The notes below the pieces were generated by a model, which saw only the letters and a list, made by a program, of their open reading frames with translations, did not search any database and had not been told where the DNA came from. Of a stretch of 64,000 bases of DNA, positions 5,863 to 62,254 are shown one piece after another. The DNA is taken from positions 73,991 through 137,990 of the forward strand of contig CAZSKK010000002.1 of assembly GCA_964607415.1 (NCBI GenBank), read 5' to 3'. How positions within the stretch are numbered: the first letter of the stretch is position 1; each line of letters starts with the position of its first letter. This stretch comes from an uncultured Candidatus Saccharibacteria bacterium (GTDB lineage Bacteria; Patescibacteriota; Dojkabacteria; J137). Both the position numbers and the translations under genes were made by a program.

Positions 5863-5966
5863 TAATAAGCAATAATTTAAGTATAAGTTAAGTAAATATT
5901 TATATTCTCAACAGCATAATATGCTGTTTCATACTATTGCTATCGCTTACACTATTGCTAATTCTA

Positions 5967-20473: not shown

Positions 20474-21082
20474 CTAATTCTTTTTTTCAGATTCCCATTC
20501 CATTGAATAAAGAATTTTTTCTATTGCCAAATCATAGTCAAATATTTCTTTTTCGGTAAACCATACTTTAAGTTCTCTTTCAGCTTCATCAACGGAACTT
20601 GAAGCATGCACAAGATTTCTTGCAGCTCTATCCACCTCATCGGCAACAATATATGAATCTATGGTAAAATCTGCTCTAATTGTTCCTACGTCTGCAGACA
20701 ATGGGCTACCATGCCCTACAAGCTTCCTTACATGTTCAATTGCATGAGCTGATTCAATAACCATTGCAATTACTGGCCCAGCAGTTAAAAACCTTACTAA
20801 TTTTTCTTGCACTTTTTCCGCTAATTCAATGGGAGACTTATCTAATTCAATCCCCTTAGCTTTATAAATTTCAATTGTTCTGTTACCAGTTTTTGTTTTC
20901 TCTTCATCACTCCACCAGTAGTGTTTTCTTGCTTGTTCTTCTGTAGCCCAGACCATTTTCATTGCTGCTACTTTTAAACCTTTTTTTTCAAACCTTGATA
21001 AAATTTCGCCCATTAGCCCTCTTTGAACTGCATCGGGTTTTAGAAGAACCAAGGTTCTTTCGTGAGATTGTGTTTTAACCAT
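20474..21082 (-). CDS. ndk: Nucleoside diphosphate kinase with an internal insertion of about 45 aa
   Basis: 202 aa. ...RTLVLLKPDAVQRGLMGEILSRFEKKGLKVAAMKM... and the NLVHAS(S) active-site region. About 60 aa longer than typical Ndk, owing to an insert after the Kpn loop region. Confidence 0.8.
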   Translation of the reverse strand: MVKTQSHERTLVLLKPDAVQRGLMGEILSRFEKKGLKVAAMKMVWATEEQARKHYWWSDEEKTKTGNRTIEIYKAKGIELDKSPIELAEKVQEKLVRFLTAGPVIAMVIESAHAIEHVRKLVGHGSPLSADVGTIRADFTIDSYIVADEVDRAARNLVHASSSVDEAERELKVWFTEKEIFDYDLAIEKILYSMEWESEKKN

Positions 21083-21221
21083 AATAAAAATTTAAAAGTT
21101 AAATGTTAAATGAATAAGTTGATTGTCCTTAGCCAATAGTTATTATATTCTCAATAGCATGAATCGTGAATCACACATTCACGACGAATTTGGTCTAAGA
21201 GTTCAGTAACTTTATCTACTT

Positions 21222-21404
21222 AACAACATAAAATGTTGTTTCGGGAATGCCTTGTGATATCCCAAACAACACATTGTGTTGTTTGCAAAAATTATATACC
21301 CTTGATAGGAGTCGAACCTATTTCTTTTTTATATTCTCGACAGCATAATATGCTGTCTCGGGATTGCTCTATCCCAAAACATGACATTGTCATGTTTTGC
21401 AAAA
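21222..21404. repeat. Two tandem modules of [palindromic hairpin]-[tRNA-Arg D/anticodon-arm-like fragment]-[palindromic hairpin]-GCAAAA, plus a tRNA-Arg 3'-half-like fragment
   Basis: Module 1 (21222-21290): aacaacat-aaa-atgttgtt | tcgggaatgccttgtgatatccc | aaacaacac-att-gtgttgttt | gcaaaa. Module 2 (21339-21404): gacagcat-aat-atgctgtc | tcgggattgctctatccc | aaaacatgac-att-gtcatgtttt | gcaaaa. Between them, acccttgataggagtcgaacctat mimics the acceptor/T-arm of the adjacent tRNA-Arg. Confidence 0.6.
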
Positions 21405-21412
21405 CTAAAAAC

Positions 21413-21484
21413 TACCCTCACTAGGAATCGAACCTAGATCTAGGCGTTAGGAATGCCTTGTTCTATCCGTTGAACTATGAGGGC
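21413..21484 (-). tRNA. tRNA-Arg (anticodon CCT)
   Basis: Minus strand GCCCTCATAGTTCAACGGATAGAAC-AAGGCA-TTCCTAA-CGCCT-AGATC-TAGGTTCGATTCCTAG-TGAGGGT. There is one A-C mismatch at the base of the anticodon stem. Confidence 0.7.
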
Positions 21485-21581
21485 TTTTGTTACATCGAAT
21501 TATATAGCAGAATTCTTAACTGTGAAAGAATAAAATTAAAGAAACGAAGGCTTAAAGTAACTACCAACTTATTACTTAATC

Positions 21582-22823
21582 TTAATACGGTCTCCAGTAT
21601 GGTATATATGGCGCTGTATCAACTGCGAACCCGCCAACTTTTAAAGTCAAGTGAAGGTGAGTACCAGTGCAATTGCCTGTACACCCCATATTCAGGATCT
21701 CCTGCCCTCCATATACTGTGTCCCCTGCTCTAACCCATACATTTCCATCTCCGTGATAGTAGTATGACCTTATCCCATTACCATGATCTATTACTACAGA
21801 ATAACCTCCACCTGCAACTACTTCCCACCCTGCAACTACAACTTTACCCGCAGCAATAGCCCTGATAGGACACCCTCCTCCTTTTGCAAGGTCAACTCCA
21901 TCATGCCATCCTGAAAAGCCTCTACTCCATGAGTATCCGGCACACGAAGGATGAGACAACGGATCAACAAAGTTAAGCCCATTTAAAGCTTGAACTTGTA
22001 CATCAGTTAAAATTGAAGCACTAGTATAAGGAGCGGAAAAATATGATGATGGACCTGGTATTGGTGGAGGTGGAGCTGGTAAGCTTCCTCCAGGAATTAG
22101 AACTCTAAAATCCTGAGCTAGTGTTTTATTAGCATCATTTATCTGATTAATTTCTAAAACTTCAAATTGATCACCATTCTTAACCTGGCTTAAAATCCAA
22201 CTTATTGTGTCTCCTGATTTTGCTTTATATAAGACTCCATTAATTTCTGGAATATATAAAATGTCCCCAGGTTTAAGATTCTCTTGGTAATAATCTATCT
22301 TATCCCTATTAGAATCTTTGATTGTTTCTTTTGAAATACTATATTTTTTAGCAAGATCTTCAAGCTTATCTCCCGATTGAACGGTGTATTCGAAAATTCT
22401 AAAGTTTGAAGGAGTGGTTGAAGCTAAAACAGTTTGTATGCTTCCGCCCTGCTCCAATACGTCAATGTTACTTATAATTCCAGATCCGGATTCTATGGTT
22501 GCATTTACTTGACTACTTTCACTGATTCTTGAAGAAATTCCCGTTACTAAAATAGACACAGTTAGAATTACAAAAAGAGTATGCAAAATCTTTTTATACA
22601 AATTTCCTCTACCCCAGAATAACCTATAAACAAAGCCTGTTTTTACATTCAATGAAATTTCAAATAAAGAACCGACAATAATTGGTATTATTTGAGAAAG
22701 TTTTTTCAAAGCCATAATCAATAGTCCCAGCAAATTTACCGGTATATTAATTATGTTTTTGGCTATATTCTTTGTTTTTAAATTCTTTAAAGGTTTGACC
22801 TTTAAAGATCTTATTTTCTTCAC
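21582..22823 (-). CDS. Membrane-anchored LysM-domain M23 (LytM-type) peptidoglycan endopeptidase
   Basis: 413 aa. TM segments, two LysM motifs (YTVQSGDKLEDLAKKY..., YKAKSGDTISWIL...) and a C-terminal M23 catalytic region (...HDGVDLA..., ...GTHLHL...). Confidence 0.8.
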   Translation of the reverse strand: MKKIRSLKVKPLKNLKTKNIAKNIINIPVNLLGLLIMALKKLSQIIPIIVGSLFEISLNVKTGFVYRLFWGRGNLYKKILHTLFVILTVSILVTGISSRISESSQVNATIESGSGIISNIDVLEQGGSIQTVLASTTPSNFRIFEYTVQSGDKLEDLAKKYSISKETIKDSNRDKIDYYQENLKPGDILYIPEINGVLYKAKSGDTISWILSQVKNGDQFEVLEINQINDANKTLAQDFRVLIPGGSLPAPPPPIPGPSSYFSAPYTSASILTDVQVQALNGLNFVDPLSHPSCAGYSWSRGFSGWHDGVDLAKGGGCPIRAIAAGKVVVAGWEVVAGGGYSVVIDHGNGIRSYYYHGDGNVWVRAGDTVYGGQEILNMGCTGNCTGTHLHLTLKVGGFAVDTAPYIPYWRPY

Positions 22824-27459: not shown

Positions 27460-27496
27460 TACGCAAAAGAGGCGGAAATAAATTTCCGCCTCTTTT
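27460..27496 (-). terminator. Rho-independent terminator downstream of rpsA
   Basis: aaagaggcggaaa-taaa-tttccgcctcttt on the plus strand reads as stem-loop plus U-run on the minus strand, immediately 3' of rpsA. Confidence 0.6.
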
Positions 27497-29158: not shown

Positions 29159-29354
29159 CAAATGCGTTTTACGTTTTGCATAAAGCGTTGTATGTATTAG
29201 CGCATTTGTCTGATGACAAGTACAATAAATTTTAAAAGATCACATCACGTTTAACATCATACTTCTAACGTTAAACGCTTATGAACTCTAAAAACTGAAT
29301 AGAAAAAAGTACTCCGAGCATTTGATATAAATACCAAGAAATGATTAAAAAATT

Positions 29355-32395
<3,041 letters not shown>

Positions 32396-32576
32396 ATTTT
32401 TTAATCAATTATATACCCGGTGTACTTTTTCTATTCAGTTGTTAAAGATCAAATACCACTTCCGTGGACGAAATCCGAAAATCGAATTCCGAAATTTATA
32501 TTACTTTATTTTAATACAAGATTTCGAATTTCGAATTTATATTTAGAATTTGCAATTTTGTTTATAAAATTGTTTT

Positions 32577-35297: not shown

Positions 35298-35392
35298 TTT
35301 CCTCTCCTTTTAGGAGAGGTCGATCCTGAAAGGATCGGGTGAGGTTATCAACCCCTCACCTTAGTCCTCTCCCAGTGGGAGAGGAAATTAGT
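35298..35392. repeat. Multi-hairpin repeat element (cctctcc-N6-ggagagg / tcgatcc-N5-ggatcgg / ggtgagg-N9-cctcacc / cctctcc-N6-gagagg) downstream of polA
   Basis: Four consecutive perfect short hairpins. The same element family recurs at 61874-62254. Confidence 0.55.
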
Positions 35393-42179: not shown

Positions 42180-42404
42180 ATTATCTCTTCAAGAATTATT
42201 AAGTTTAAATAAGCTACCAGTTTCCTTATTGTCTTTTAGTATTATTCTCCTTTCTAAATTCTGACCATTCTTCTTAGTTTTAATTCGTAAGAATGTAGAA
42301 TAAAGGTTAGGATATGAATGAAATAGTTTAAGTGAAAGTTAAATTTTTATTCTCAACAGCATATTATGCTGTTTCGTGCTTTCACTTACACTATTGCTTT
42401 CTCA

Positions 42405-42478
42405 TAGTGAGAGCTAGGGATCGAACTCGCGACCTCAGGTTTACCTGCCTGACAAATTACAAACTCTAGTTTCAAATT
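42405..42478 (-). pseudogene. Degenerate partial copy (anticodon-stem 3' strand through T-arm) of the adjacent tRNA-Met
   Basis: ...cctgaggtcgcgagttcgatccctagctctc... versus the intact ...cctgaggtcgagggttcgatcccctcccttggt. The T-stem is no longer complementary. Confidence 0.5.
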
Positions 42479-42552
42479 TACCAAGGGAGGGGATCGAACC
42501 CTCGACCTCAGGTTTATGAATCCTGTGCTCTAGCCAACTGAGCTACCTTGGT
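42479..42552 (-). tRNA. tRNA with CAT anticodon (elongator Met, or Ile2 if lysidinylated)
   Basis: Minus strand ACCAAGGTAGCTCAGTTGGCTAGAGCA-CAGGA-TTCATAA-ACCTG-AGGTC-GAGGGTTCGATCCCCTC-CCTTGGTA. A1:U72 pair, so not an initiator. Confidence 0.7.
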
Positions 42553-42565
42553 TAAGTGGCTTTGT

Positions 42566-42600
42566 ACTTTGTGGGCAGATGAATCCTGTGCTCCTTGCCA
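42566..42600 (-). pseudogene. Partial copy of the tRNA-Met D/anticodon region
   Basis: ...gcagatgaatcctgtgctccttgcc... matches ...gaatcctgtgctctagcc... of the intact gene. Confidence 0.4.
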
Positions 42601-42863
42601 ATATGCCAAGCATTTTGGCAGTTCGGAACTCTTTCCCTAAAATACCAGATGATTGATATAAAGTGCTTTTGTATTTTAACACGAGACAACACCATGTGTT
42701 GCCGAGAATAAAACTTTTATTTATTTAGAAACGGTCCCACTAACATGCGGGACCGTAGAGACATTATACGGGTTACTGGAAAAATTGTCTACGAGTTATG
42801 CTGGGGAAAGAGTTGAAGTTCAAGTACCAAGCTATTGTTATTTACTTAAACTATTGCTTTATT

Positions 42864-43486: not shown

Positions 43487-44356
43487 ATGCAGACTTCTCA
43501 AGAACTGATAGAAAATTTCGTACAATACTTGCGAAGAAAAAATAAGTCTCATTCAACTATTATTGCATACAAAAAAGATCTTGAGCAACTCGCAAGTTTA
43601 AATGTCAGAAAAAATCTAACTGAGTACACTGTTGATGATATAAAAAATGGGCTAAATTACCTAAGAACAGACAAGGGACTAACTTTAAAGACTGTTTCAA
43701 GAAAATTAAATAGTATTAGAACTTTTTATAAATATTTAGAAGCTAAGAACTTAATAAAAGATAATCCCAGCAAGAATGTTACTCACCCAAAGTTTCCACT
43801 AAAAAAACAAAGAGTTCTGTCAGAGATGGAGTGTCTTGCGCTTAAGGAAGTAAGCAGAGATAATGCAAGACTTTACGCAATGATTGAACTACTACTACAA
43901 ACCGGAATTAGAATAAGTGAATTATCGAATCTAAATTTGAAAGATGTGCAAAACAAAATTGGTGAACATTACCTTCACGTTGAAAAATATTCAAACAACC
44001 CTGAAAGAAGAGTTCCTTTAAACGATAAAATAAATAAAATCTTAGCTTCTTACATTGATTCTTTACCTAGAAAAACTCAAACTAGCCCACTATTCCCTAC
44101 ACGTAGTGGCAAAAATATGGAAATTAGAAACATTAGGAGCTCAATTGATAGGGCAATAATTAAAGCTAAGGTTAAAAATGCATGTGTAAACGATATTAGA
44201 AATACTTTTATCGTAAGGCAATTGGAAAATGGGATGTCTATTTCAAAATTAGCTGAAATTGTTGGCCACAGAAATATTCTTACAACGCAAAAATATATCC
44301 GTCTTCTTTCAAAAAAATACAAACCTACTGGAATAGATAAAGTGTGCGAGTTATAA
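43487..44356 (+). CDS. Tyrosine site-specific recombinase (XerC/XerD or phage-integrase family)
   Basis: 289 aa. N-terminal SAM-like core-binding domain. The catalytic domain has ...LLQTGIRISELSNLNLKDV... (box I R), ...DIRNTF..., and ...GHRNILTTQKYIRL (catalytic Y). It sits directly beside tRNA genes and tRNA fragments. Confidence 0.8.
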   Translation: MQTSQELIENFVQYLRRKNKSHSTIIAYKKDLEQLASLNVRKNLTEYTVDDIKNGLNYLRTDKGLTLKTVSRKLNSIRTFYKYLEAKNLIKDNPSKNVTHPKFPLKKQRVLSEMECLALKEVSRDNARLYAMIELLLQTGIRISELSNLNLKDVQNKIGEHYLHVEKYSNNPERRVPLNDKINKILASYIDSLPRKTQTSPLFPTRSGKNMEIRNIRSSIDRAIIKAKVKNACVNDIRNTFIVRQLENGMSISKLAEIVGHRNILTTQKYIRLLSKKYKPTGIDKVCEL

Positions 44357-44383
44357 TACTGAAGTTAATAATTCAGTACAGAT

Positions 44384-44402
44384 TTCTAGCTCAGCTGGTT
44401 AC
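44384..44402 (+). pseudogene. 5' tRNA fragment (acceptor plus D-arm-like: TTCTAGCTCAGCTGGTTA)
   Basis: Resembles the 5' end of the tRNA at 44473 but lacks the remainder of the cloverleaf. Confidence 0.4.
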
Positions 44403-44472
44403 TTGCCTTGCCGAAATGCATGGCATGCAGGCAGGTAGCACGGGTTCTTTAAAGAAGTTAGGTATTAAAAAT

Positions 44473-44546
44473 AGACCTGTAGCTCAGTTGGTTAGAGCAC
44501 GGTTCTTATAAAGCCGGGGTCCGTGGTTCGAGTCCACGCAGGTCTA
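44473..44546 (+). tRNA. tRNA-Ile (anticodon TAT; AUA-decoding)
   Basis: AGACCTG-TA-GCTC-AGTTGGTTA-GAGC-A-CGGTT-CTTATAA-AGCCG-GGGTC-CGTGG-TTCGAGT-CCACG-CAGGTCT-A. All stems pair and the anticodon is UAU. Confidence 0.6.
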
Positions 44547-44594
44547 TTTTTAATATCTTTACTTTAGAATTAAAGCTCGGGAACTCATTCGACA

Positions 44595-44645
44595 TGATAA
44601 TATCATGTCTCACGTGGTTCGAGTCCAAGTGGCCTACTTTGAATA
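44595..44645 (+). pseudogene. Palindromic hairpin (gacatgataatatcatgtc) followed by a 3'-half copy of the neighbouring tRNA T-arm/acceptor (att-like remnant)
   Basis: ...cacgtggttcgagtccaagtggcct... versus ...ccgtggttcgagtccacgcaggtct in the intact tRNA 50 nt upstream. Confidence 0.45.
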
Positions 44646-44650
44646 ACTTT

Positions 44651-47092
44651 TTAGAATCCAAATGAAGGCATTCCGAAAGGATTTGATTTTTCTTTCTCCT
44701 CTTCTTTTATAAATGTACCTCTTAGCTTAACTTCATTTTCAATAATATTTCTATCCTTGCCGTATTTGAGTCTTGAAATCTGTTTAATTATATCTGAAAG
44801 CTCTGGATTTGGTGATGTAATCATACCAAATGGAGATTGATCATACATTGAAGTAATGGAGAATGGTGGTGTTGGCTTACCATCCACAAGCATTTTTATA
44901 AATGCATTTCTGTTTTCTACTTGAATTAAATCATTTCTCGTAAATGCCCCTTCAAACTCCTTTTCTAAAAATTCTGCATCATCAACCCCAACTCTGAATA
45001 CAGCCTTATTACCAACGTTTCCAAAAATAGCATCTCTAATTTTTGTATCCCCTCCAGTTCTTGTCAGCTGTCCTATAAACTGATGGCCTATCGTTAAAGA
45101 TAATTTGTACTTTCTAGCTTCCGACAAAATAATCATAATTCCATCAGTCAAGAAGTTTTGGAACTCATCTATGTACAAAAAGAACGGTTTTCTTTGACTT
45201 TCAGAAACACTTTCACGGCCAAGACCTGCAACCAGTAACTTACCTATTAAAATCATACCCAATAGATTTGCATTGAAGTCTCCAATTTTACCCTTTGAAA
45301 GCTTAGCCAAAAGAATTTTCCCATCATCCATAATATTTCTGAAATTTACTGTAGAATTTTGTTGAGCCACTATTGGTCTTACATAGGCATTTGACAAGAA
45401 ACTTGCAAGTTTTGAAGTAATGTATGGCGTCATATTCTTAAGTGATGCTTCTCCTCCTGCTTTTTCAGCCTGTTTTTTCCAGAAGTCAATAACTTCCTGG
45501 TCATCACACTTGGAAAGTTTATAAGCTCTATAGCCATCATCTGCAAAAATTTTAGGTATTTCTAGAAGTGTTGAGCCCGATTCTTTATCGGCGGTTAAAA
45601 GTAAGATTCCGTATCTCATATACTGCTCAAAAATAGGACCTCCAGTTTTTTTCAAATCGTATAGTGTATCAAAAATATTTAGCATTTCGTTAATTACAAG
45701 AGTTTTTTCTGCTTCAGTGTTGAATTCGAGCATGTTCAGGCCAATTGGTCTTTCAAGATCCGCTGGGTCAAAAACAACAACATCTTCGACTCTCTCTGGT
45801 GGTATTTGTTCCATTATCCTTTCTACATCAGTACCATGTGGGTCAATATAGGCACACCCATGCCCCATTTTTATATCCCTGATCATCATGCTGCTCATAA
45901 AATATGATTTACCAGAACCTGTCTGCCCAATAATGTACATATGCCTCAACCTATCATCAGGCTTAATAAAGATTTCCTTGGTTTTTCCTCTAAAAATGTT
46001 TCTCCCCATATACATGTAATCCTGTTGATATGCAGTTGTTACAAAATCCGCAGCTGGCATTTTGCTAGATAAAAGCCATTGTATGTGGGGAGTTGTTATT
46101 AGCTTGTTAGGGAAATGAAAAAGTGTCGCAAGCTCCGATGAGTTTAAAATCATAGACTCCCTTGGCAATCTGTACACAAAATCCTTTGTTATTTTCTTTA
46201 ATTTCTTTTTATCGACTTTCTTAAATCTATTGCCCCCTTCTTTTGTAAACTGATCAAAAGTACTAAGAATATTAGAAAGATGAGTGTTTGCTGACCCTTC
46301 CATATCGGAAACCACCACTACGCGCACGTCTGTTTGAAACCCAGATTTGCTTGCTTTCACATCGATCATTTCAAGAGTGTCTTCATTCACCTTGACCTTA
46401 CCCTTGTTATCGGGGTCACTCATCTTTTCTTTTATTTTTCTGATATAGTCTTTTGAATCATTTCGCCAGCTTGACCCTGCCGGGGTTATTACAACCTGAT
46501 ATGCGGCAGCTTCGTTTGATTGAAGCTTACTGAAAGCATCTAAAAGTGTAGCAAGAGGATCTACAGGAAGCTCTTCGTAATTTCTGACCGGTAATCTTGA
46601 TTCTTTATCTAATGTAAGTGCAGCAAAAGCAACAGATGCATCATCAGGGAATAAATTGTACTCTTTTACTCTATTAATTTCTGCCTCAGGATAATTACCA
46701 TTAATTTGCCTATCAACAAGATTCGCAATTTTTTCAGGGCAAACCACAAAAAACCTTATATTATCTTTGAACGCAACAATTTCAAAACTTACGAAAGTTT
46801 GGGCATCTAAATATTTTTGAAGTCTTTTTAATTTCTTCCCGATTCCAGTTAATCCTGTAAACATTTGGTCGGCAGCCTTAATCTCAATTTCATTATCTTG
46901 TGGTAATTTAACTTCAAAGTAAGCAAGGCCCAAAGATTTTTTCAAAGAAGACTTTTCTTTTATATTCTTTAGAAACTCCTTAAAAAGTCTTATTGCTAAA
47001 ATTGATATACCTGCAAGTACGACAACAACAGCTAGGATTGTTATCAAAAAACTTGCTATTGCATTTGTATCTACTGAAGGAGCATCGATCAT
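44651..47092 (-). CDS. Membrane-anchored FtsK/HerA-superfamily ATPase of type-IV-secretion type (VirD4/TraG-like, or a VirB3-VirB4-like fusion)
   Basis: 813 aa. N-terminal TM, Walker A IIGQTGSGKSY followed by IDPHGTD, Walker B FFLYIDEFQNF, then ...EARKYKLSLTIGHQFIGQL...AIFGNVGNKAVFRV..., the DEF/R-K-Y-G/HQ..QL motif series of conjugative coupling/transfer ATPases. Confidence 0.6.
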   Translation of the reverse strand: MIDAPSVDTNAIASFLITILAVVVVLAGISILAIRLFKEFLKNIKEKSSLKKSLGLAYFEVKLPQDNEIEIKAADQMFTGLTGIGKKLKRLQKYLDAQTFVSFEIVAFKDNIRFFVVCPEKIANLVDRQINGNYPEAEINRVKEYNLFPDDASVAFAALTLDKESRLPVRNYEELPVDPLATLLDAFSKLQSNEAAAYQVVITPAGSSWRNDSKDYIRKIKEKMSDPDNKGKVKVNEDTLEMIDVKASKSGFQTDVRVVVVSDMEGSANTHLSNILSTFDQFTKEGGNRFKKVDKKKLKKITKDFVYRLPRESMILNSSELATLFHFPNKLITTPHIQWLLSSKMPAADFVTTAYQQDYMYMGRNIFRGKTKEIFIKPDDRLRHMYIIGQTGSGKSYFMSSMMIRDIKMGHGCAYIDPHGTDVERIMEQIPPERVEDVVVFDPADLERPIGLNMLEFNTEAEKTLVINEMLNIFDTLYDLKKTGGPIFEQYMRYGILLLTADKESGSTLLEIPKIFADDGYRAYKLSKCDDQEVIDFWKKQAEKAGGEASLKNMTPYITSKLASFLSNAYVRPIVAQQNSTVNFRNIMDDGKILLAKLSKGKIGDFNANLLGMILIGKLLVAGLGRESVSESQRKPFFLYIDEFQNFLTDGIMIILSEARKYKLSLTIGHQFIGQLTRTGGDTKIRDAIFGNVGNKAVFRVGVDDAEFLEKEFEGAFTRNDLIQVENRNAFIKMLVDGKPTPPFSITSMYDQSPFGMITSPNPELSDIIKQISRLKYGKDRNIIENEVKLRGTFIKEEEKEKSNPFGMPSFGF

Positions 47093-51806: not shown

Positions 51807-51950
51807 TTAGGTTGAGTGTTTTTATCTGTTCGAATTTTAGCACATTTAGCTTCACCCTGTCCTGAGACAACATACTATGTTGTCGAATGGAGCTGATTAA
51901 TACTCGATAGGATAATATCCTATCTCGGGGTGGCTGCAGGCCGGGTGAGG

Positions 51951-61461: not shown

Positions 61462-61536
61462 AAAGTTCGAATAACCCCATTCTTCTTATTCTCGAATACA
61501 CAATGTGTATTCTCGCCCTTTAATTAAAGGTAGGGG

Positions 61537-61854: not shown

Positions 61855-61873
61855 ATATTAAGCATATTCTACT

Positions 61874-62254
61874 TACTTCTCCTTAAGGAGAAGTCGATTT
61901 TGCCTTTGTGCAAAATCGGATGAGGTTTTTAAATTAACTCTTAAAGATATTGTATATGAAGTAGCGAAAGAGGAAAAGAGCAAATTAGGTACAAGATTTA
62001 GAGGTAAAGAGCAAAAGAGCTAAACAGGTTAGAGGTATGAGGTTAGTGGTTAGAGGAATAGAGCAAGAGAGGCTTGAGGTAAAGGGCGAAAGAGGTAGAG
62101 AGGTGAAAAGGTTTAGAGCAATAGAGAGCAAATGGTTGGATTTCCTCTCCCTCTGGGAGAGGACTTAGGTGAGGGTGTGATCAGAAAGCTTTAGGCTCAC
62201 CTCACCCGTACTCACTGCGTTCGTACGACCTCTCCTCAAAAGGAGAGGAAATTA
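61874..62254. repeat. Second locus of the multi-hairpin element family, split by a ~210-bp GAGG-rich degenerate tandem-repeat tract
   Basis: 61874-61930 reads cttctcc-ttaag-gagaag / tcgattttgc-N-gcaaaatcga / tgagg. 62141-62254 reads cctctcc-ctctgg-gagagg ... ggtgagg...cctcacc ... cctctcc-tcaaaa-ggagagg-aaatta. Compare 35298-35392. The intervening 61931-62140 holds about 15 GAGG/AGAGG motifs. Confidence 0.55.

Follow-up and report, generated by a model that had tools for sequence, protein, structure and literature searches.

What occupies the short stretch of DNA behind an intact tRNA-Arg gene, where perfect palindromes alternate with pieces that resemble the tRNA itself? The locus lies in a 64,000-nt stretch of bacterial DNA, referred to here as the window, which has a GC content of ~33%, contains an rRNA operon and ten tRNA genes, and is intergenic over 13.7% of its length. 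Homologues of the NDK encoded beside the array carry the source labels Candidatus Dojkabacteria or Patescibacteria. An initial annotation described two modules of hairpin, tRNA-like piece and second hairpin, with a fragment resembling a tRNA 3' half between them, and offered two explanations, namely repeated partial tRNA duplication as at integrase att sites combined with insertion of a small palindromic element, or a family of tRNA-derived structured small RNAs. All of the elements that it described are present at the coordinates reported below, and the array sequence is identical across four independent Logan assemblies, which establishes that it is real and not an assembly artefact.

Architecture of the tandem array

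The modules are situated between a gene for an M23/LysM peptidase (21582-22823, minus strand) and the NDK gene ndk (20474-21082, minus strand). The intact tRNA-Arg(CCU) gene, whose sequence is here called the resident allele, occupies 21413-21484 on the minus strand and was identified by ARAGORN, with a score of 62.2 bits against the Rfam tRNA model. On the strand of the tRNA the modules are 3' of the tRNA and 5' of ndk; their earlier description as downstream of tRNA-Arg is correct for this minus strand, but not for the plus strand. A promoter-like site for the tRNA (21499-21526, minus strand; TTCACA, 16-nt spacer, TATAAT) agrees with the consensus at 11/12 positions and is conserved in a sister species. 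The corresponding site for ndk (21142-21184, minus strand; TTCACG, 17-nt spacer, TATAAT) overlaps a hairpin at 21164-21184 and includes a half-copy of the palindrome-plus-box motif (ATGCTATTGAGAATATAAT) that is treated further below.

Read along the minus strand, the intact tRNA is followed by GTTTTTAGTTTTGC and then by palindrome 2b (21375-21399), an A-tract, stem and T-tract with the sequence CAAAACATGACA-A-TGTCATGTTTTG (12-bp arms, 1-nt centre) that starts 13 nt past the tRNA 3' end. The centre of module 2 comes next (21358-21375, minus strand; GGGATAGAGCAATCCCGA) and corresponds to the D-loop, the D-stem 3' strand and the anticodon-stem 5' strand. It is followed by palindrome 2a (21339-21357; GACAGCATA-T-TATGCTGTC; 9-bp arms, 1-nt centre), which has GA on both flanks, an AT-rich box (21322-21338, minus strand; GAGAATATAAAAAAGAA) and an orphan T-arm plus acceptor 3' fragment (21297-21321, minus strand; ATAGGTTCGACTCCTATCAAGGGTA). 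This fragment, separated from the intact gene by 91 nt, is the 3'-half-like sequence that had been noticed between the modules. The order then continues with TATAATTTTTGC, palindrome 3b (21263-21285; CAAACAACACA-A-TGTGTTGTTTG; 11-bp arms, 1-nt centre), which stands behind TTTTGC and begins 12 nt past the orphan fragment, the centre of module 3 (21241-21263, minus strand; GGGATATCACAAGGCATTCCCGA), which holds positions 24-35 of the resident tRNA-Arg, palindrome 3a (21222-21240; AACAACAT-TTT-ATGTTGTT; 8-bp arms, 3-nt loop) and AAGTAGATAAAG. The sole exact matches to TCGGGAWTGC in the window are TCGGGAATGC at 21241-21250 and TCGGGATTGC at 21358-21367, and GCAAAA stands directly after both b-palindromes when these are read in the direction of the initial annotation.

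Arranged in this way, the sequence contains twice a unit of ~116 nt, consisting of a T-arm/acceptor end, a spacer ending in TTTTGC, palindrome b, a GGGATA..TCCCGA piece, palindrome a and an AT-rich box. Copy A starts within the intact gene, the T-arm and acceptor end of the resident tRNA-Arg forming its beginning; copy B opens with the orphan fragment and has lost its own end. A repeat search found the modules in register, with a start-to-start spacing of 113-117 nt in three repeat families, and a MAFFT alignment of 21441-21297 with 21321-21186 gave 80 identical positions among the 108 aligned (74%) up to the AT-rich box, beyond which the similarity of the two units stops. The regular spacing and this alignment identify the modules plus the fragment as two copies of one ~116-nt tandem unit. 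This call rests on the repeat search and the MAFFT alignment, as Tandem Repeats Finder, with the thresholds it applies, reported no repeat here at an identity of 74%. Uniqueness to this locus, which the initial annotation had named as evidence against its reading, was found in the window for the whole modules but not for the palindromes, which recur elsewhere on their own.

Origin of the tRNA-Arg pieces

Two other Dojkabacteria lineages, with NDK sequences ~80% identical to that of the window, served as reference for tRNA-Arg(CCU). The 16-mer GGATAGAGCAATCCCG in the centre of module 2 is identical at 16/16 positions to the intact tRNA-Arg(CCU) of L084 (beginning with GTCCTTGTAGCTCAATGGATAGAGCAATCCCGTCCTAAGGG), L085 and L089 (GCCCTTGTAGCTCAACTGGATAGAGCAATCCCGTCCTAAGGGAGAGGTTGGAGGTTCGATTCCCCCCAAGGGTA), and spans the D-loop, the D-stem 3' strand and the anticodon-stem 5' strand of this family-typical allele. 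It occurs once in the window, where 0.01 occurrences would be expected even with two mismatches allowed. The close match to the adjacent tRNA-Arg that had been reported for both modules holds for module 3, whose centre shares the exact 12-mer ACAAGGCATTCC with positions 24-35 of the resident gene and agrees with it at 17/19 positions overall, but module 2 is nearer to the tRNA-Arg of other Dojkabacteria. Over 29 nt the orphan fragment shares 79% identity with the resident 3' end; it closes with CAAGGGTA, the same acceptor 3' strand as in L089, and its T-loop region (AGGTTCGACTCC) agrees fully with the T-arm region of L086. These matches place the origin of the central pieces in tRNA-Arg.

The agreement extends beyond the individual pieces. 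A 116-nt segment, unit 2 (21297-21412, minus strand), was aligned to the tRNA-Arg(CCU) of relatives, and in semi-global alignments to those of L084, L086 and L089 it scored z = 6.7-7.1, with 0/300 shuffles as high; the alignment is colinear over the whole 116 nt. Against the tRNA-Arg of the window itself unit 2 scored z = 4.3, and the centre of module 3 scored z = 2.4 against the resident allele. In tRNA order, unit 2 begins with a possible 5' remnant (GTTTTTAGTT, a weak match), followed by palindrome b, the D-loop/anticodon-stem 5' piece and palindrome a, and then by the AT-rich box, the positions of the 3' anticodon stem and variable loop, the T-arm and the acceptor 3' strand. The colinear alignment, together with the family-typical matches, identifies unit 2 as a former tRNA-Arg gene that keeps ancestral-type sequence. 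Its D-loop position is occupied by one palindrome, and the other, with the AT-rich box, takes the place of the anticodon loop, the 3' anticodon stem and the variable loop, so that unit 2 cannot make a tRNA. Unit 3, which contains module 3, is a second, truncated copy with a centre that resembles the resident gene and may have come to do so through exchange.

Searches for a tRNA or other RNA gene in the modules gave a concordant picture. At normal thresholds ARAGORN found no tRNA in unit 2, in unit 3 or in a concatenation of the two, whether the four palindromes were retained or removed; with introns allowed it found none in the units, and the -ps80 setting gave spurious calls only. On inspection, the module sequences lack an anticodon, a 3' anticodon stem and any 5' acceptor strand that could pair with CAAGGGT. 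Since the ARAGORN runs with introns allowed were empty and removal of the palindromes in silico restores no tRNA, an intron-containing, split or permuted tRNA was rejected. Rfam searches, at the gathering threshold and at E up to 10, matched the intact tRNA and no module, on which ground a known RNA family was likewise rejected; a cloverleaf according to the tRNA model (RF00005) is found at 21413-21484 alone (62.2 bits) and in no module.

None of the four stems of the resident tRNA-Arg itself agrees fully with the family-typical allele, and its anticodon stem is completely replaced. At acceptor pairs 6-67 and 7-66 the sister species and L098 form graded steps between the family-typical state and that of the window, a series that fits evolution of the resident gene in situ. 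Because the anticodon stem is wholly replaced, it is also possible that the resident tRNA-Arg is an imported gene that took the place of an older one, rather than the outcome of a duplication.

Relatives and strains were compared at the same locus. In the sister species (NDK 92% identical), the gene order Rho-M23-tRNA-Arg-NDK-PEGA and the tRNA promoter are the same, and the tRNA is followed by TATAGAGCAATCTCGAATATA only. Palindromes, a 3' fragment and a second module are all missing from this locus, which after GGGTA retains only TATAGAGCAATCTCGAATATATTAAAATCG, a 14-nt remnant of the module-2 centre that agrees with the family-typical tRNA at 13/14 positions. A sister-species contig, L083, which derives from SRR29333043, opens with GAATATAAATTGC fused directly to a T-arm/acceptor fragment, at a site where other sister-species strains have a plain tRNA, and a unit-2-like arrangement thus segregates in the sister species too. 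The pseudo-copy is older than the split of the two species. L098 has a resident-type tRNA allele, and its ndk begins 40 nt behind the tRNA. Within the species of the window, a 63-nt segment (21206-21268) that is present in the window and in L099-L102 is missing in L002 and L004. The deletion takes half of palindrome 3b, the centre of module 3 and palindrome 3a, and is imprecise, with TG microhomology only at the junction. Such variation marks the array as unstable and dispensable.

Wider searches yielded few further relatives. A metagenome scan with a 24-mer from the T-arm/acceptor region returned mostly unrelated organisms, with L098 as the single relative, and the best match in a GTDB scan with NDK was 60% identical, which is too distant for a comparison of spacers. 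No strain variation was seen at the locus of the recombinase and tRNA-Ile, and the sister-species contigs of the MreB-tRNA cluster end within tRNA-Tyr or tRNA-Thr, short of the palindrome in the Thr-Tyr spacer. Debris similar to that behind tRNA-Arg was observed around tRNA-Met and tRNA-Ile(UAU) in the window.

We propose, with a probability of about 0.6, that the array consists of decaying tandem pseudo-tRNA-Arg(CCU) copies, placed head to tail behind the intact gene and accompanied by lineage-specific palindromes. An ancestral tRNA-Arg(CCU) region would have been duplicated, after which one copy would have stayed functional and diverged, and the other would have decayed through indels with patches of its ancestral sequence kept. 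A later tandem duplication of ~116 nt would have given rise to module 3, and exchange between the array copies and the resident gene may have followed. We infer that the array as such has no function. The part of the initial annotation that saw the modules as repeated partial copies of tRNA-Arg combined with small palindromes belonging to a wider family in the genome is supported by the sequence matches.

A family of perfect palindromes

The four palindromes of the array belong to a family of 11 in the 64-kb window, all intergenic and distributed over seven separate spacers (5910-5928, 21222-21240, 21263-21285, 21339-21357, 21375-21399, 42355-42373, 42680-42698, the latter with one mismatch, 44591-44609, 51866-51884, 51906-51924 and 61494-61512). 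Most members lie ~10-45 nt after the end of a tRNA, the 3' end of a tRNA fragment or a stop codon, and at 44591 the palindrome separates two convergent 3' ends. The copies follow the pattern R-A-N-A-N-N-A-T/C-A, central base, then complement, in which the variable positions pair in every case; by direct reading, 10/11 copies are symmetric up to the central base. Copies of the a-type carry GA on both sides in 8/9 cases, and four copies have CGAG..CGAG. The box GAGAATAWAA follows five palindromes, comprising the module-2 box and four others, and a half-copy is present in the ndk promoter region.

Comparison of the two modules indicates how the palindromes change. Their arms differ by four substitutions and a 1-nt indel, all of them mirrored on the partner arm, and the sole unmirrored difference is one loop-adjacent base. 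In a simple simulation of unconstrained divergence, the probability that both palindromes are perfect with at least two compensated pairs each was ~1e-7. The two palindromes of module 3 are 83% complementary to each other. Homologous hairpins after tRNA-Thr(GGU), degenerate in the window and with one mismatch in the sister species, show that at least some sites are old and positionally conserved. The family exists, is lineage-specific and has maintained its perfect pairing. A second hairpin family (TGCC..GGCA) was observed in the D-loops of pseudo-5' halves upstream of tRNA-Met and tRNA-Ile(UAU).

As RNA, palindrome 2b is predicted to form a hairpin of -12.9 kcal/mol (z = -5.3) and palindrome 2a one of -10.9 kcal/mol, and the predicted folds allow three adjacent hairpins per module. 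The array region as a whole folds better than 100/100 shuffles on both strands (z = -5.2 and -7.9). A sigma-70 consensus scan of four loci called the promoters of tRNA-Arg and ndk and no cassette of palindrome plus GAGAATAWAA. A sigma-70 promoter has -35 and -10 hexamers 16-18 nt apart. The cassette offers a -10-like TATAAA only, its GAGAATAWAA box standing without a -35 partner, and the reading of palindrome plus box as a promoter was rejected on these scans. Neither palindrome type passed a consensus terminator scan at the same four loci, and a consensus terminator was rejected in turn; canonical GC-rich terminators are present in the genome, for example at 27465-27496. With neither a terminator call nor a -35 partner, the positive support for a function of the hairpins is that of position.

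The palindromes most probably form, or once formed, hairpins in RNA or DNA where transcripts end, and as weak terminators or insulators would separate tRNA-Arg from ndk; any such specific function is put forward with less confidence than the pseudo-tRNA origin of the array. Symmetry up to the central base is not needed by an RNA hairpin and thus points to a cause at the DNA level. Perfection up to the dyad centre might partly reflect templated correction of quasi-palindromes in the DNA, or a dimeric binding protein.

Alternative origins and related systems

One alternative is that the array represents the scars of an att site. A tyrosine-integrase element would have entered the T-arm/anticodon region of tRNA-Arg, duplicated part of it and later been almost wholly deleted, and the palindromes and the GAGAATATAAA box would be the element's end sequences left between displaced tRNA pieces. 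General precedent exists, in that a passage of van der Gulik et al. 2023 (PMC9897764) describes tRNA gene fragments and pseudo-tRNAs by intact tRNAs as partial duplications from integrating elements or gene duplication, and presents such duplication by integrating elements, with reference to Williams 2002 and Reiter 1989, as the standard way in which tRNA gene fragments arise. The site is polymorphic in L083, where the box GAATATAAATTGC abuts the fragment too, and the contigs L002 and L004 both break off precisely within the anticodon loop. An Xer-like tyrosine recombinase (43487-44356) also lies between two other tRNAs that are flanked by their own fragments; it is, however, 22 kb away and resembles Xer proteins. 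An att-site fragment repeats the tRNA 3' segment directly, in identical or nearly identical form, and bounds an integrated element that usually carries an integrase gene beside the tRNA. The positions of a supposed 'attL' and 'attR' are separated by 91 nt of non-coding DNA that contain no integrase or other element gene, the repeat (29 nt, in direct orientation) is 79% identical and not identical, and the neighbouring genes, M23 peptidase and NDK, are housekeeping genes whose order is conserved in the sister species. On these grounds the att-site origin suggested in the initial annotation stands unproven. The D-loop/anticodon-stem piece is, moreover, colinear with the 3' piece, which means that a whole second gene is present and not merely a displaced 3' end, and a colinear whole-gene remnant is at odds with such scars. 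Scans of viral contigs for the palindrome cassette and for the resident and family-typical tRNA alleles found nothing, which led us to reject a phage origin, and we regard att-site scars in general as unlikely.

It is similarly doubtful that the palindromes are REP/MITE-like selfish repeats that insert at GA, with a preference for intergenic DNA and for exposed loops in redundant tRNA copies, and that broke up the surplus tRNA-Arg genes in this way. Their 11 intergenic copies in 64 kb, their location where the pseudo-tRNA would have its D-loop and anticodon loop, the central remnant of the sister species without either palindrome, and the TGCC..GGCA hairpins in the D-loops of the pseudo-5' halves by tRNA-Met and tRNA-Ile(UAU) all accord with such mobility. 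The GA on both flanks of 8/9 a-type copies, extended to CGAG..CGAG in four, resembles either the duplicated target site of an insertion or a portion of a recognition motif. MITEs are marked by terminal inverted repeats, duplicated target sites and empty sites in related genomes. A check for target-site duplications found no precise empty site, the sister sequence not being that of the window minus a palindrome and one GA, and the copies are not near-identical with random decay, as they differ by compensated changes. The sole polymorphism within the species is the imprecise 63-nt deletion, and no transposase or RAYT-like gene was seen among the scanned part of the ORFs of the window. Insertion of a small palindromic element, as first suggested, is correct in so far as the palindromes belong to a wider family, but their flanks are common to both modules, which implies that they were duplicated with the unit and not independently inserted. 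An element of 19 nt would also fall below the size of every mobile element known to us. A bolder version holds that the palindromes of 19-25 nt are DNA palindromes of a novel and exceptionally small class in Dojkabacteria (CPR), able to propagate or correct themselves; this is improbable in our judgement, and so is its corollary that these colonise intergenic DNA and the D- and anticodon-loops of redundant tRNA copies and thereby kill or remodel tRNA genes.

Less probable still, and disfavoured in all comparative and model-based tests, is a functional structured RNA, whether a tRNA-derived small RNA, a tRNA-like regulator of ndk or an intron-containing, split or permuted tRNA. The strong folding on both strands, the three adjacent hairpins possible per module, the stems kept by compensated changes and the position of the modules on the tRNA strand between the tRNA promoter and ndk would all be in keeping with it. 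Yet neither the sister species nor L098 has the modules, L002 and L004 have lost part of them, no Rfam family matches them, and whole modules occur nowhere else in the window, findings that speak against the small-RNA family considered in the initial annotation. No tRNA emerges after hairpin removal or with introns allowed, and the anticodon, the 3' anticodon stem and the 5' acceptor strand complementary to CAAGGGT are lacking. The array is dispensable genomic debris rather than a new RNA gene.

The closest known kind of locus is the ordinary tRNA gene fragment or pseudo-tRNA beside an intact tRNA, for which the work of Williams from 2002 is said to be a source. Like these, the array consists of diverged partial copies on the same strand as the intact gene, includes a T-arm/acceptor 3' fragment and forms no cloverleaf. 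Unlike them, it has no element or integrase between the copies, retains a colinear D-loop/anticodon-stem piece of an older allele, and holds its pieces in a 116-nt tandem repeat with perfect palindromes between them. Archaeal intron-containing, split or permuted tRNAs share the interruptions at the D-loop and anticodon-loop and a 3' piece upstream of the D/anticodon piece, but the host is bacterial, the anticodon, 3' anticodon stem and matching 5' acceptor strand are missing, and no bulge-helix-bulge motif was found by eye in the array.

For the palindromes themselves, the nearest systems are REP-like extragenic palindromes and weak bidirectional terminators, and they lack the GTAG head of the first and the consensus signal of the second. 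REP, BIME and REPIN sequences are short, multi-copy intergenic palindromes, often paired and often just behind genes; REPs and REPINs have a conserved GTAG head, an imperfect palindrome and a cognate RAYT (Y1 HUH) transposase. The present family is likewise short, intergenic and multi-copy (11 copies in 64 kb), and the pair of module 3 is 83% complementary as in a REPIN doublet. In place of a GTAG head, however, there are GA..GA flanks, the palindromes are perfect and 19-25 nt long, their sequence varies with pairing kept, and no RAYT was seen among the ORFs scanned. Intrinsic terminators, often bidirectional, consist of a G+C-rich stem-loop and a U-tract just behind a gene. They share with the family a position ~10-45 nt after tRNA 3' ends or stop codons, once between convergent genes, and, for the b-type, the succession of A-tract, stem and T-tract. 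They differ in that the palindromes have AT-rich stems and 1-nt centres, the a-type has no T-tract, the T-tract of the b-type forms part of the stem, and none passes the consensus scan. CRISPR arrays, dif/Xer sites and CRESS-type origin hairpins were also weighed and dropped, because the family is at odds with them in copy number, spacing and loop sequence.

Understood as decaying tandem pseudo-tRNA-Arg(CCU) copies, the locus records a turnover of tRNA-Arg(CCU), with an ancestral-type copy in decay next to one whose four stems have all diverged. For the annotation of reduced CPR genomes, it teaches that tRNA-like debris should not be called a small-RNA gene or an att site without comparative evidence. 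It is striking that 11 short palindromes have been kept perfect through compensated changes in a genome otherwise poor in non-coding DNA. The cause of this upkeep, be it a 3'-end hairpin, a binding protein or templated repair, would inform our understanding of genome maintenance in these bacteria.

Diverged tRNA fragments beside tRNA-Met(CAT) and tRNA-Ile(TAT)

The intact minus-strand gene for tRNA-Met(CAT) (42479-42552) is accompanied on both sides by diverged pieces of itself, on the same strand within the regions 42417-42443, 42579-42593 and 42553-42650. The upstream fragment, preceded by the hairpin TGCCAAAATGCTTGGCATATTGGCA, corresponds to tRNA positions 23-37 and the downstream fragment to positions 37-63, such that anticodon-loop position 37 is both the end of the 5' fragment and the start of the 3' fragment. 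Short inverted repeats (CTGCC..GGCAGG) end the DNA between the two fragments, with the intact gene inside.

Similar pieces flank the plus-strand tRNA-Ile(TAT) gene (44472-44547), whose anticodon is unusual in bacteria. Upstream (44376-44471) lies a pseudo-5' half, AGATTTCTAGCTCAGCTGGTTA..TAGCACGGGTTC, carrying a 34-nt hairpin within its D-loop, and downstream (44613-44640) a T-arm fragment, both also on the plus strand. The elements upstream of tRNA-Ile(TAT) and tRNA-Met have a core of ~41 nt in common, TGCCRAAATGCWTGGCATnnnGGCARGKAGCACRGG.

Between these two tRNA genes a Xer-like tyrosine recombinase of 289 aa is encoded on the plus strand (43487-44356). It scored 143 bits against the NCBIfam XerC model, below the cut-off of 335, and its closest non-self homologue is ~60% identical. 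The adjoining 813-aa ORF (44651-47092, minus strand) weakly matches coupling-protein domains of the TraD/VirD4 type, and the two genes may be remnants of a mobile element.

Further palindromes and structured RNAs

Additional copies of the perfect-palindrome family found behind tRNA-Arg(CCU) occur at 5910-5928, 42355-42373, 42680-42698, 44591-44609, 51866-51884, 51906-51924 and 61494-61512, all of them intergenic. Their layout is GA, a 19-nt palindrome and GA, followed in several cases by the AT-rich box GAGAATAWAA. Longer imperfect inverted repeats (AGCAATAGTGTAAG..) surround the family palindrome in 5880-5960 and 42320-42400. The GC-richer spacer between two minus-strand ORFs at 51830-51950 holds two members in opposite orientation, flanked by complementary-looking GCCTCACCC..GGGTGAAGC segments; a search of this spacer against Rfam gave no match at E-values up to 1.

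A second palindrome family, CCTCTCC..GGAGAGG, is present at 35301, 35366, 62144 and 62229 (regions 35301-35385 and 61870-62250). The latter region includes a CT-rich repetitive stretch (~61950-62130) and an Rfam match to whalefall-1 RNA (61873-61927), whose 39.6 bits exceed the gathering score of 37. The 23S rRNA match (29344-32403) spans 3060 nt compared with 2925 nt for the model, and ~135 nt of extra sequence must therefore lie somewhere in the gene. rRNA genes carrying insertions have precedents among CPR bacteria.

tRNA rearrangements in other contigs

In an unrelated organism (metagenome contig Ga0102926_1094337), a tRNA that shares its T-arm and acceptor end with tRNA-Arg has ~40 nt inserted after the anticodon-loop region (..GGCCTTCTTCTATACTTTTGAAAAACAGAGTACAGGAGAAGCCGAGG..); this may be an intron-containing tRNA. 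Within the sister species, one Logan contig (L083, SRR29333043; positions 1-40) starts with GAATATAAATTGC fused directly to a tRNA-Arg T-arm/acceptor fragment with a window-type acceptor strand (TGAGGGTA). In other strains of this species a plain intact tRNA-Arg occupies the site, and the L083 junction is a rearrangement segregating at that tRNA-Arg site.
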